From the NCBI GenBank assembly GCA_020054325.1, contig JAGVLG010000113.1:443-64442 (forward strand): a stretch of 64,000 nucleotides of DNA. The letters run 5' to 3'. Shown piece by piece: positions 1 to 6,000 of the stretch. Origin of the DNA: Gammaproteobacteria bacterium (GTDB taxonomy: Bacteria; Pseudomonadota; Gammaproteobacteria; UBA6186; Azoamicaceae). Each line of letters begins with the position of its first letter. Within the stretch, counting starts at the first letter, position 1. The position numbers are program-made.

Positions 1-3000
1 ATCTTTCCCGCTTTATAAATGAATTAGATTCAAAGCTTAATTATCTAGACTTTGACTTTCCCGAAAATTTAACTAAGCAATTTAGAGATGATATTACTAC
101 TTGTTTGCGTGAACTGCATAATGCTTATGAAATTAATGCAGACTTGCTCCCCAAAACTGAATTACATGTGAGGCTGCATAATTTACTTTACAAGCTTAAA
201 TGTCGTTATGTGCAACAATATTTATTATCGCAAAATAGCGAGCAGCATAATCAAGACTTACAACAGATGATTGTTGCAGCATTTGTCAATGCTGTTCCAG
301 AACAATTGCGAGCTGAAGCTCAAAGAGAGATTCAGAAATTTGTTGAGTCTAATTGCAAAAATTATGTAGCCAAGTTTTTAGAAAAGGTAGCAGCTGATAC
401 TTACAACTTATATACTATTTTTGATATATTACGCCATAATATTGTTGCAAAAGTAGCAGATGAAATACCTATTTTAGCCGGTTACGATGTGTATGCAATA
501 TTCGATGTTAATTTGCAACATGGTTTCAATCATATGTGCGCGGTGATTAGCGCAAATACTAGCGTAGATAATATTGATGGTTTAGTAAAGAAGCACTTAC
601 CAGGAACTTATAGGTTTGATAATCCGGGGGATCAGGACTTGGCTGGTAGTGATCCATGCAGTTTTTTCAATTACATAAAAACTGTAATAGAGGCCAATGC
701 AACAAGTTTTTTTAATCCTATCGCTATCCGTGGGGCTTTTGCTAACTTGCTTAAACAAGCGCAAAAGCACCAAGATTTTTTGAAGCAGGCAAATCCAGCT
801 ATGCCAGCAACAGAGCGCCATCTGTACATTAAAGCAAATCAACAGGGATTACAGCTAAAACGCAGTGCTATTGAAAAGTGGGCCGGCAATCAAGCTTGTG
901 CATTAATAACTGGCTTCTTTACTCAGTATAATCTCGAACAGTATTTGGCATTGTACATACAACACCAAGGCGGAAAACTGCAAATCGAATTAAAAAACTT
1001 CCTTATTGTAACTGCAGAGCAGCAATTAAGCTCATATTATGTCTTGCCAGAATTTCTGCGTACCGCACCAACTAGGCCTGCTGCTACATCTAAATCGGTG
1101 CAACAATTGCATGGTTAGAAATTGTTTTTCCATTGCCGTAACTCAGCAAACACTGCAACCTCATCTTGCAACTCTCCGGCACAATGTTGGCTTACGCTAT
1201 CAATGATCACTGGATTATTGGTACGTAAAAACGGATTATAACTTAATTCTTGCTGCATTGTGCTTGGTAGTGTTGGTAAATCTTGCGCTTGTAATTGTTG
1301 CGCCTGCTGTAAACGTTGTTGCAGCGCTTGGTTTTCTGGATCAACCCTAGCTGCAAAATTTAAATTATTTACAGTATATTCATGACCACAATATACCTTA
1401 ATATTTTCGGACAAATTTTTAAGTTTTTGCAATGAATGTAACATTTGTGCTGCAGTACCTTCAAATACCCTGCCACAACCAGCGCTAAAAAGCGTATCGC
1501 CACAAAATAATAAATCATCATTATAAAAGGCAATATGATCTAAAGTATGACCAGGAATTTCAATTACTTTAAGAGTAATTTGTTGTTTTTCTAAAAGAAT
1601 TGTCATGCCTTCTGTTGTATTAGAACTGCGCCATACAGGAACATTACTATAAGCCAATAACTCTGGAATACCAGCGCTATGATCCTGGTGGTGATGCGTA
1701 AGTAAAATATCAGTCAAGAATATATTATTTGATTCTAAAAATTTTATGACCGGTATAGCATCGCCCGGATCAACAACTGCTGCGTACTGTTTATTTGGGT
1801 CACAAATAACCCAAATATAGTTATCTTTTAATGCGCGTAAAGGAATTATACTAGCGATGTTAGTTTTCACAATCGTTGGTTGGAGAACCAAACACCGCAG
1901 GATCATACAAAGTTCTACAGCTACTTGGTACAAATTTGGGGTTACCAGTGTAAGCACAGGTCCAGGTCATGCCACCGGGATTTATGCCAGCATTGCCAGT
2001 GTTTTCGGTTAAGTAGGTGCCTGTAAAATAAATATTCACGGTGTCTTGTGGCTCGGTACCCTGACCTTCGGTGCTGCCACAAACCACAATAGCCATGTTA
2101 TTATCATCACGAACCGCAAATTGAATATTGCTTATCGTAGGATTTAAAAAGGTAGGATCCGAGGTGCCAATATTACTCATTGTTGCCTCTGGATCTGATG
2201 GATCTATACCATCAAAGTTACCATTAACTATACGGTATTCAGTTACAAAGTCTTTAAGCCCAGATGCCGCAGCAATCATGTTAGATATTTTTGATCTAAT
2301 TAAATAGTCAGCATATGCTGGGATAGCTACCGCAGCTAAGACTCCAAGTATTGCAACAACTATCATTAACTCTAGCAGGGTGAACCCTTTCTTTTGCTTG
2401 CGGACAATTTTTGATATCGACATCTTTAAACCTATATTGTTAATAGCAAAATTTAGCTCGACTTTACTCGTCGCTAGAGCTAACCTATTGATTTTTAATT
2501 AAATAAACCCAGCACCTACTAAAATTATAGGTCAAAAATTCAAAAAATTACAATTTTTACCTTTTTTTGCTAGAATGATGCCTCTGAATAGTGCCCTGAC
2601 TCTGGAGAGATGGCCGAGCGGTTGAAGGCGCGCGCCTCGAAAGCGTGAATACGGTAAAACGTATCGAGGGTTCGAATCCCTCTCTCTCCTCCAATTACAA
2701 CCTATAAGTTTACATACTCAATATACTAGTATCGATGATTTGATATCAAAGCAAGCCAGAAAAGTTGCTATTGAAATAGTAACTAGAGCGAGTCAACATA
2801 TGGCATTAGAAGATCAAGCATTATCATCTGATAATATTAGATCTGAAATAGAAAGAATCACAAATGATCTATCTAGAGAATTACCTAATTTTTTTTGGGA
2901 TAGTTAAAGGAACAACAAATGCATTACCCTGAAGGCGTCATGCAAGAATAATGGCAGATACATTATTAGAAAAAATATTTAAGCAAGCCCCCATAGATTG

Positions 3001-6000
3001 GTCTGGTGGATTTGACCTTTGTGTTATGAACGAAAGAAGAAAATTATATATAACTTCATTGCACGAGGCAGATAGAGGAAATTTTAAGCCATTATTAAAA
3101 TTTGTTAATTTTCCTGGAACATAATTTAGTAAAATATTTTGCGTGTGCTAAATTGAATAATTGGAACTTTATAACATTCTTTATCAATAGCGAGGGAAAT
3201 TATGTCACTACGAAAATTACTACCAATAGTTCTAAGCACTGCGGCTCTCATTTCATTTGGTGTAGTGGCAGATGATAATCCTGTTACTGAAGTCGGCAAG
3301 GGTGTAAGCGATGCTGCGGTAGATGTTGGTAATGCCGTAGAGGGTGCGGTAAAAACTACTGGTAAAACAATAGATAACGTAGTAACTGGCGATAAATCTA
3401 ATACCGTAGTACAGCCATCTGATAAAAGTATTGCCACAAATGTCCGCACCAAAATACAAGATTTAAAAGCTAATAATAAAATTAATGCTGGCACTACGCT
3501 TGAAGTAAGTGTTAACAAAGGCGTAGTAAAAATTTCTGGAACAATTCGCAATCCAGATGATATTGATACTGTTAAAGCCGCTGCAAGATCTGAAGCTGGG
3601 GTTAAGGACGTTGTTATGAATGTCCAAGTACGGCGTTAAAGGCACATATATAGTGTGGATACACTTATTTATTTGACAAATATAAATCAATCCGTCTAAT
3701 ATTGTAGTTGAATACAATATTGGACGGAATATGTACATCAAGCGAACCATGGAACCCACCATAAGGAGGGCCTCCAACAGTTTTCCAGTTATAATGGTTA
3801 CTGGGCCACGACAAATAGGAAAAACTACCCTATTACAACGCTGCGCCGAACCAAACAGACATTATGTTACTTTAGATGATCTTAACCAAAGATCGTTAGC
3901 AAAAAGTGACCCGGAATTATTTTTTAAGAGAAATCCACCTCCGATTCTAATTGACGAAGTTCAGTATGCGCCAGAATTATTCAGTTCTATAAAAATAATT
4001 TGTGATCGTGAACATAAAAATGGCTTATTTTGGTTAACTGGTTCTCAAAAGTTTCATTTAATGCAAAACATATCCGAGTCACTTGCAGGTCGGGTTGCAA
4101 TATTAGATTTATTAGGTCTATCTCAATCTGAAATATTTGATTATGCGCAAGATAGCAAACCATTGTTGCCAACTTTAGAATGGTTGACTCAAGCCAGAAA
4201 AAACGCTAAGAAAGATTTTGGTTTAATGGAAGTCTACAAAAGGATTTGGACTGGGTCGTTTCCACAAATTGTATTGCAACCAGAAACAGATCGCGATTTA
4301 TTTTATGCATCTTATGTGCAAACTTATATTCAACGTGATGTACGGGAAATTACTAACATAACTAATGAGACAGGTTTCTATAACTTTTTACGTGCAGTCG
4401 CAGCACGCACTGGTCAATTACTTAATTATGCAGATCTCGCTAGAGATGCAGATATAAATCATAGGACTGTGAAGGATTGGTTAAATATATTAGAAACTTC
4501 AGGAATAATTTATTTGCTACGCCCATATCATACTAATGTGGTTAATCGTTTAATAAAAACTCCGAAGCTATACTTCCTGGATACTGGTTTATGTTCTTAT
4601 TTAACTAGGTGGCAATCGATAGAGTCTTTAGAAGCTGGGGCGATGTCAGGACATATTTTAGAAACATATGTATTCACTGAGATACTTAAGAGCTATTGGC
4701 ATAATGGTAAGGAAGCATATTTTAATTTTTATCGTGATAAAGACGATAGAGAAATCGATTTAATTATTGATCAAAATAATACTTTATATCCTATCGAAGT
4801 GAAAAAAACGGCTAACCCCGCTGACAACGCACCCTCGAATTTCAAATATTTGGCAGGCTTAAAACAAAATATTGGTCATGGCATGGTGATATGCCTAACA
4901 GAAAAAGATATTCCTTTATCACGTGATGTCGACGCTATGCCAGTAGGGTATTTGTAAATTGGTGGAGAGAGAGGGATTCGAACCCTCGATACGTTTTACC
5001 GTATACACACTTTCCAGGCGTGCGCCTTCGACCGCTCGGCCATCTCTCCATTAATCACAAAAACCTTTATAACTTATTTCAATCCTCGATACGTTTTACC
5101 GAGATAAGGGAAGCGAGTATAACAAACTGTTAGCTATTCCAGCAACCAATAGCAAATTATTTATTTACTTAACTACCAAACTGTAAAAAATGCCAAAATA
5201 ACTGTAAAAAATCCTAGTGCATGTCTTGGAACTTAGCAAAAACACATAGGTCAAAGCTACGGTGTGTTTTTGTTTATGGGGTGTAATATGCTTAGTAATG
5301 ACGCAGGTACAGTAGAGATAATAACATTTCGAGCAACTCGTTCTGAACATCCATACCTAGAATCTCTTATGGCTTTAATACGTGGCACAAGTACCGGACA
5401 CATTGCTCTACGTCTTACCTTCCATAATAGCGATTTATTTAAACAATACATTGCAAATAGCGATATTCCACATCGTATCATTAATGATAAAATCAGCGGT
5501 AAAACCCTTTATGAAGTTTACGTAAGTTTCTGGCCAGCAGGTGATTGGGCGCCTTGGCATCCGACCAGCTCATTACGACGATATCGGTTTGATTGTGAGC
5601 AATCTGGTACTTATAGTCCGTTTAAATATGATCCTGAAATTGTAGCACGACTCAAACTAGCTCCAATTGAAAAATTTGCACGCTCTAATTTGCCATTTTT
5701 TAACTATTTTGATCACACCACTATCAACTTGCCACCAAGTATAATTCTACATACAACCCGACTAAAAACAGCTTATGGCAGTAATGGAACAGTCATTGCT
5801 GCAGCAGCGGAATCATTCGCAACAAAATATCACGAATGGCGCACAGCTTTAGTAAAAGAGCAAAATGCAAAACTTATAAATGAAGACGCACCTGAACTTT
5901 TAAAGATATTAAAACGTGACGTACATATTGCACAAATGCGCATGCAAATTAGTAGACGAGAGCTTAAAAGCCTTATGTTTCCAAACATAGAAATGGATGA

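Follow-up and report, generated by a model that had tools for sequence, protein, structure and literature searches.

A tRNA-Ser(CGA) gene probably derived from a neighbouring tRNA-Ser(GGA) gene by duplication and anticodon switch in a member of the Azoamicaceae

Introduction

How does a bacterium come to carry two nearly identical tRNA-Ser genes with different anticodons, set head-on around a short patch of accessory DNA? The question is raised by a stretch of 64,000 nt (hereafter the window) from contig JAGVLG010000113.1 (positions 443 to 64,442, forward strand) of GCA_020054325.1, the assembly of a gammaproteobacterium of the family Azoamicaceae (genome G000, 2.16 Mb in 117 contigs). Towards the left end of the window a tRNA-Ser(CGA) gene and a tRNA-Ser(GGA) gene face each other, and an orphan piece of tRNA lies just outside the pair. 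An earlier note on this DNA, made from the sequence alone, described the interval as an accessory patch and considered that the two genes might mediate its inversion, and that the orphan piece might be a scar of integration, excision or tRNA duplication. Here we ask where the CGA gene came from, and whether duplication, import of foreign DNA, integration of an element or inversion best accounts for the locus.

Results

Two facing tRNA-Ser genes with one common body

tRNA genes were called with ARAGORN over the whole window, which returned two, both tRNA-Ser (Table 1). The calls confirm the positions and the inward-pointing 3′ ends reported before; the genes stand 2266 bp apart (interval 2694-4959). 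The reported identity was reproduced by alignment as well: 84 of 90 positions are the same, the six that differ include anticodon position 34, and the longest run common to both genes measures 41 nt (positions 46-86), reaching up to the base before the discriminator. Matched to Rfam RF00005, the GGA gene scores 59.2 bits and the CGA gene 58.2 bits, and the cloverleaf of the CGA gene is intact. Together with a GCT and a TGA gene, the pair makes up the four tRNA-Ser genes of the genome. A consensus scan gave a promoter-like site for each of the two genes; upstream of the tRNA-Ser genes no alignable sequence, and so no conserved promoter or leader, was found across species.

Table 1. Features of the tRNA-Ser locus (window coordinates).
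Feature	Position	Strand	Remarks
Promoter-like site for tRNA-Ser(CGA)	2547-2576	+	ATTACA-18-TAGAAT, TG before the -10 element; ends 27 nt 5′ of the tRNA; consensus scan only
tRNA-Ser(CGA)	2604-2693	+	GGA-type body; discriminator U73
Two short open frames	2695-2907, 2951-3124	+	No Pfam match, paralogue in the genome or match in relatives
BON-domain protein (PF04972), 145 aa	3202-3639	+	Hydrophobic N-terminus; lineage-specific
Upstream part of the AAA_14/DUF4143 unit	3662-3730	+	Promoter-like TTGACA-18-TAATAT (3673-3702); 36-bp near-perfect palindrome (3692-3727)
AAA_14 + DUF4143 ATPase gene	3731-4957	+	Pfam; converges on the tRNA-Ser(GGA) 3′ end
tRNA-Ser(GGA)	4960-5049	-	Ancestral anticodon arm retained; discriminator A73
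Orphan copy of tRNA variable arm and start of T arm, 25 nt	5077-5101	-	Direct orientation; 28-52 nt upstream of the tRNA-Ser(GGA) 5′ end
p439	5288-6583	+	First gene of the conserved right frame; anchor for cross-species comparison

The CGA gene is built on a GGA-type body

The native tRNA-Ser(CGA) of the family has a different, TGA-like body (GGAGAGGTGCCGGAGYGG...GGCGGTCTCGAAAACCGTT; also GGAGAGGTGCCGGAGYGGTYGAAYGGGGCGGTCTCGAAA...). A pattern search of 41 family genomes found it in most other genera (g2, g4, g5, g8, g9, g10 and g12). The body of these native genes diverges from the window CGA gene in the first 39 nt, and full-length examples form a separate clade in the tree (support 89/92), far from the window gene. 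No CGA gene of either type was found in G001 (100% complete), G002, G003 or G004, whose tRNA-Ser genes belong only to types from GGA, GCT and TGA. The anticodon arm of the window CGA gene reads GCGCGCC-TCGAAA-GCGTG, that of all GGA genes GCACGCC-TGGAAA-GTGTG, and a GGA-type arm with a CGA anticodon occurs in G000 alone among the 41 family genomes and among 401 genomes (320 genera) of the class. The gene is 93% identical to the GGA gene of its own genome, 89-92% to the GGA genes of the genus and 70-76% to the CGA genes of class relatives; in the full tree it falls inside the GGA/GCT clade (100/99), its position there being a polytomy. Both copies share two features: a derived variable arm, seen in G000, G002 and G003 where G001 keeps the older type, and the family-specific A-T pair in the T stem; the variable loop of the CGA gene is GGTAAAAC.

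Compared with the GGA genes of the genus, the CGA gene is derived at 29 (A>G), 35 (G34>C, in the anticodon), 41 (T>C) and 45 (T>A), and the GGA gene at 20 (T>C) and in its discriminator, A73. Discriminator aside, four derived states in the one copy against one in the other indicate that the change went from GGA to CGA. The two anticodons are a single point change apart, at position 34, and the GGA gene is still present 2.3 kb away. The divergence of the paralogues (6/90) is about that of the orthologues in G002 (5/90) and G003 (4/90), which fits an old duplication and thereby explains why the flanks can no longer be aligned. The 41-nt block is shared without change by the GGA orthologues of G002 and G003 as well, and thus reflects constraint, not recent copying. 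Given the identity of the paralogues and the GGA-type body of the CGA gene, duplication is the best reading of the pair, as the earlier note had allowed. We think it probable, with moderate confidence, that the window CGA gene is a local duplicate of the GGA gene which acquired the G34C switch, and that its anticodon stem converged on a state suiting C34.

Conversion of a native serCGA gene by the GGA gene was also considered and rejected: there is no native copy in the genus, and the native body is ~70% identical. A separate case was seen in the class relative G036, where a tRNA-Ser(CGA) gene (C1:1594379-1594468, L023) has a TGA-type body and no TGA gene is among the matches from that genome; this may be another anticodon switch, in the opposite direction.

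A variable stretch within a conserved frame

On the right, the locus is bounded by p439(+), DAO(-), ABC permease(-) and ABC ATPase(-), an order kept in G001 and G002. The left anchor, capD, lies just outside the window, and contigs C18 and C106 of G000 abut inside it: residues 1-465 of G001 CapD match C18, residues 472-606 match the first 405 nt of C106, and one contig of the Joint Genome Institute (JGI) bridges the two. The overall order geneY, capD ... p439, DAO, ABC is found in G000 and G001, and likewise, without capD, in G002.

What lies between these anchors differs. G000 has geneY, capD, an orphan open reading frame (ORF), gloB, a pilin gene, tRNA-Ser(CGA)(+), the interval, tRNA-Ser(GGA)(-) and p439. 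G001 has geneY, capD, one gene, tRNA-Ser(GGA)(+), 10 kb of DNA and p439, and the 10 kb hold an AlaX-like gene, an AAA_25 helicase, a Toprim primase and Fic, none with a homologue in G000. In G002, geneY is followed by 7 kb (including Fic), tRNA-Ser(GGA)(-), 4 kb and p439. The alignment with relatives that the earlier note had called for therefore shows the capD-p439 stretch filled completely differently in three species of the genus. The CGA gene of G000 sits on the capD side, in the position and orientation of the only GGA gene of G001 (+), and its GGA gene, near p439, corresponds in place and orientation to the single GGA gene of G002 (-).

The gene gloB, which stands beside the pilin gene in the variable stretch of G000 (window 1115-2423), is found in G001 (C8, L014) and G002 (C23, L013) inside two different conserved blocks; a second gloB-like gene of G000, 36% identical, lies on C79. 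The differing surroundings of gloB across species indicate that the genus is heavily rearranged.

Proposed history and decoding

An inverted duplication, a loss in G002 and a switch in G000 would, we infer, be the most economical history. The native tRNA-Ser(CGA) of the family would have been lost in the genus, and the single tRNA-Ser(GGA) gene would then have been duplicated, in inverted orientation, in the variable stretch between capD and p439, probably once G001 had split off and before, or close to, the separation from G002. G002 would subsequently have lost the capD-side copy. In the lineage of G000 the copy at 2604-2693 would have changed G34 to C, giving a CGA anticodon that reads UCG, and would also have gained two anticodon-stem changes and one at the junction of stem and variable arm; the copy at 4960-5049 would have kept GGA, needed for UCC and UCU. 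By the decoding rules GGA is the only reader of UCC, so the GGA copy would have to predate the switch.

The switched copy is expected to remain charged with serine and to read UCG, which makes up 9.2% of the serine codons, on the strength of what is established for seryl-tRNA synthetase (SerRS): the enzyme recognises the long variable arm and not the anticodon, so that serine identity is anticodon-independent (PMC9976931). tRNA-Ser(UGA) can read UCG too (PMC7661048); relatives can thus manage without a CGA gene, and loss of serCGA is tolerated.

The orphan tRNA fragment

The orphan piece beside the GGA gene consists of an exact 18-mer, CCTCGATACGTTTTACCG, at 5084-5101, which extends to a match of 20/21 at 5081-5101 and, with one gap, to the full 25 nt listed in Table 1. 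The third partial copy described earlier thus exists with its 20/21 match, and its coordinates are corrected from 5091-5111 to 5081-5101. Three copies of the 18-mer stand in the window, where 0.02 would be expected by chance, and the proposed search of all 117 contigs for further copies returned these three only. The fragment is an internal piece of tRNA, positions 49-73, has sharp edges and is unchanged in the second assembly. As a candidate, a decayed tandem tRNA was discarded, as 5060-5149 compared in register has chance identity outside the 25 nt (hand count).

The suggestion that the fragment is a classical attachment-site (att) scar does not hold. An attR would be a copy of the 3′ end downstream of the gene; this piece is internal, lies upstream and has no tRNA similarity around it. 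Its variable-arm sequence is the derived one, which dates its origin to after G001 had split off. Most likely it is templated filler, or else a scar left when the DNA between the tRNA and p439, 4 kb longer in G002, was rearranged; this is the weakest step of our account. No further tRNA-Ser pieces were found in the examined stretches of the G001, G002 and G003 loci. Upstream of p439, two 13-nt repeats form a promoter-like TTTACA-17-TACAGT on the minus strand (window 5180-5208); this site could drive tRNA-Ser(GGA) with a leader of ~120 nt that would hold the orphan fragment.

Alternative explanations of the locus

Several observations weigh against a local duplication followed by a switch. No homology that would prove a duplication survives in the flanks of the two copies, and the order of events may have run through one ancestral pair with differential loss or through independent rearrangements. 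UCG use in G000 (9.2% of serine codons; 5.0% in G001 and 10.7% in G002, small samples) is not clearly above that of G002, and codon-usage pressure, considered as a driver, was set aside for lack of a clear signal in these shares. At the positions of G29 and C41 the GGA genes examined show no variation, and both bases match the tRNA-Ser(CGA) of Acidobacteria/Actinobacteria-type contigs, the only ones to match when the 30-nt CGA-arm pattern was searched in public genomes and metagenomes; these genes are also 84/90 identical to the window CGA gene. Maximum-likelihood trees of the reduced GGA and CGA set weakly join the window gene to the foreign CGA genes (90/88, and 82/81 with position 34 masked). 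The approximately unbiased (AU) test leaves unrejected both a grouping with the own genus (p-AU 0.18 and 0.34) and one with the native family CGA genes (p-AU 0.094), the alignment of 90 nt having too little power to decide between local and foreign origin by tree. The CGA gene, or its central patch at 20-45, would on this alternative be of Acidobacteria/Actinobacteria-like origin, brought in with accessory DNA, which the locus does receive, and either landing in the variable stretch or converting part of a resident GGA copy. We regard such an origin as rather unlikely, since the window gene has the own-lineage state at all four sites outside the anticodon arm that separate the candidate sources (16, 52, 56 and 64), including the family-specific A-T pair of the T stem. 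No closer donor was found in 185,579 species genomes or in the metagenome contigs with the 30-mer, no other member of the class (401 genomes) has such a gene, and conversion of the patch would require recombination across 19 nt plus 41 nt of imperfect homology.

The layout of the locus has further possible explanations. The interval could be the decayed remnant of an element that had integrated in tRNA-Ser, the second tRNA and the fragment being derived from its att sites: both tRNA 3′ ends face the interval, the 10-kb insert of G001 downstream of tRNA-Ser(GGA) is element-like, the A73 and U73 of the pair in place of the G73 of relatives look as if 3′ ends had been exchanged, and, 145 nt downstream of tRNA-Ser(GCT) in the same genome, 19 nt of the 3′ end of that gene are repeated. 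Yet the ORFs from 1 to 7756 encode no integrase domain, in agreement with the earlier observation that none remains; the tRNA copies are inverted, not direct, and the second is complete, with an anticodon of its own; the fragment does not derive from a 3′ end; and the AAA_14/DUF4143 unit stands alone, without a tRNA, in G004 and G007. We therefore judge integration unlikely. Still less probable, and in our view very improbable, is the inversion that the earlier note had envisaged, in which recombination at the 41-nt block would flip the interval with its BON and AAA genes. The inverted repeats are indeed 90 nt long with 41 nt identical, and the orientation of the tRNA relative to p439 differs between G001 and G002, but each of these two species has a single copy, so that their difference is no flip between repeats. 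At both junctions the orientation agrees between two independent assemblies of populations 99.7-99.8% identical, no alternative-junction contigs occur in the assembly, and no invertase or recombinase is among the ORFs scanned. A chimeric join within shared tRNA sequence deserves mention because this metagenome-assembled genome is a 117-contig draft and 41-nt repeats can mislead short k-mer assemblers. We give it hardly any credence: the independent JGI assembly reads the same sequence across each tRNA into the interval from both sides, contig L086 running from capD over tRNA-Ser(CGA) and BON to the N-terminus of the AAA protein, and contig L087 from its C-terminus over tRNA-Ser(GGA) to p439 and beyond, with both tRNAs unchanged. 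Local duplication of the GGA gene and a later anticodon switch is therefore the reading we retain.

Accessory genes between the two tRNAs

The interval has a GC content of 35.0% (window 38.4%). For the BON protein, G001, G002 and G004 lack an orthologue and G003 gives a weak match only (31%); a paralogue elsewhere in G000 is 38% identical. With this gene, and with an AAA_14/DUF4143 gene of patchy, transfer-like distribution, the interval is made of non-core material, as had been claimed. The two short frames next to the CGA gene may be decayed or non-coding filler. They were also considered as the remnant of a Fic gene, which was rejected: they have no Pfam match even at E=10 and no genomic paralogue, and BLASTP gave no significant match to the Fic of the window (57909-59009, minus strand) or that of G002. 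We read the interval as a landing zone for accessory genes; the patch itself is ordinary tRNA-linked variable DNA.

The AAA_14/DUF4143 gene abuts tRNA-Ser(GGA), its stop codon lying 2 nt from the tRNA 3′ end. Two copies at unrelated loci resemble it closely: that of G004, with 86% identity in the protein and 79% in nucleotides, and that of G007, a member of another genus, with 84% protein identity. Neighbouring housekeeping proteins are just 52-67% identical within the genus. Homology with G004 runs from 3662 to 4961, four bases beyond the stop codon, and with G007 from 3791 to 4964. High identity at unrelated loci, with homology limited to the gene and its upstream part, marks it as a one-gene unit that moved horizontally. 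The region 3662-3730 is conserved in the G004 copy, and the G007 copy aligns there in the part with the palindrome only; lying just before the ATG, the palindrome looks like an operator for autoregulation. No tRNA was found near these copies, in 14 kb of the G004 contig or on the whole 4.9-kb G007 contig. An exact-protein look-up returned no record for the AAA protein; those for BON and p439 matched.

The genome of G000 has ~23 AAA_14/DUF4143 paralogues (for example C86:6247-7227, C59:254-1336 and C74:6899-8068). Four of them lie within 310 nt of a tRNA, compared with a background of 32 of 1543 ORFs (p=0.0012), and the genome has just six genes converging on the 3′ end of a tRNA, three of them members of the family (p about 1e-4). 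One DUF4143 gene of G003 also converges on the tRNA-Ser(GGA) of that genome. Around the other tRNA-adjacent DUF4143 genes no tRNA-derived repeats were found. A nuclease-like motif was noticed, by eye only, at the C-terminus of the protein. We considered whether these genes are self-contained mobile one-gene units with a preference for tRNA 3′ ends. This would explain the 2-nt abutment, the 84-86% identity, the sharp bounds from promoter and palindrome to stop codon, the number of paralogues and the convergence on tRNAs; if true, insertion of the unit could also have driven rearrangements, among them the inverted tRNA copy and the orphan fragment. We consider it quite unlikely.

A repeat element interrupts the AAA gene, at window position 4149-4153, in the 99.7-99.8% identical sister population of JGI sample 3300072965. 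It shows terminal inverted repeats of 11 bp (TGCGTWTTACG), subterminal repeats rich in GATC, and CAAGA as a target duplication of 5 bp. Its ends lie at L086:4919-4971 and L087:1-123, and the same ends form the first 98 nt of contigs C3, C117 and C39 of G000; from their presence at three contig starts it follows that the element exists in several copies and interrupts the assembly. The inner part of the element was not found.

Other tRNA-Ser genes and discriminator bases

In Escherichia coli, G73 favours recognition by SerRS and blocks the leucyl- and tyrosyl-tRNA synthetases (LeuRS and TyrRS). In G000 this discriminator is missing from three of the four tRNA-Ser genes (A73 in GGA, at window 4963, and in GCT, at C3:1551; U73 in CGA, at window 2690). 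U73 is also found in the GGA gene of G002 (L005:4486), and G73 in all other relatives. These discriminators are unusual, and the 3′ ends may have been replaced by integrating elements. The tRNA-Ser(GCT) gene of G000 (C3:1461-1554) has its last 31 nt in common with tRNA-Ser(GGA), and the direct copy of its own 3′ end, at C3:1699-1717, is a classical att-like scar.

A partial tRNA-Ser(CGA), in which the first ~57 nt are followed by unrelated sequence, was seen on the Acidobacteria-type soil metagenome contigs L062, L069 and L074; L074 has a second tRNA-Ser(CGA) copy that runs into the contig end.

Discussion

Formation of auxiliary tRNAs by duplication and anticodon switch is documented phylogenetically for bacteria in the work cited by PMC7661048 (Wald & Margalit 2014; Withers 2006; McDonald 2015; Tremblay-Savard 2015); the combination of duplication and anticodon switching appears for eukaryotes in PMC3923123 and in yeast experiments (Yona 2013). 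The locus resembles such isoacceptor switches in that the body of a paralogue bears another anticodon, a single base change at 34 separates the two, the donor gene is retained and the amino acid is unchanged. It differs in that the source is the GGA gene and not the UGA gene, which shares the UCG codon, and in that an isoacceptor lost from the genus is re-created; moreover, two stem changes match an unrelated CGA class, and the copies are inverted and 2.3 kb apart. The nearest experimental counterpart is Pseudomonas fluorescens SBW25, in which loss of serCGA was rescued in the laboratory by large tandem duplication of serTGA, and a later anticodon switch was proposed to rebuild serCGA, although no switch was seen (Ayan et al. 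2020, PMC7661048). In both cases serCGA is dispensable and duplication of a tRNA gene is a route to restored UCG decoding. The locus described here differs in being natural and old, with a duplicate that is tRNA-sized and inverted and a switch that has happened.

Two other known kinds of locus bear comparison. In all species of the genus that were examined, tRNA-Ser is directly followed by variable, lineage-specific DNA, which recalls tRNA-linked genomic islands. In such islands, as Williams is said to have described in 2002, a tyrosine integrase inserts DNA at tRNA 3′ ends. Here there is no integrase, direct 3′-end repeats are missing from the ends of the interval, and the partial copy is internal and lies upstream. 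With chromosomal inversions between rrn operons or insertion-sequence (IS) copies the locus has in common that an inverted pair brackets a segment; it differs in that the flipped form is present in neither assembly and the repeats are short (41 nt exact).

Understood as a duplication followed by a switch, the locus is a natural example of a known route and no new kind of system; what is particular to it is the GGA donor, the re-creation of a lost isoacceptor and the two accompanying stem changes. What is known of how bacterial tRNA sets evolve comes largely from counts on phylogenies and from a small number of laboratory experiments. The Azoamicaceae add a natural case with a before and an after: a family with a native serCGA, a genus that lost it and one species with a replacement built from the GGA gene. 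The locus would thus represent the 'duplicate, then switch' route that Ayan et al. (PMC7661048) proposed and did not observe. The changes to G29 and C41, at otherwise invariant positions and matching those of an unrelated CGA class, hint that the anticodon stem is tuned to the anticodon.

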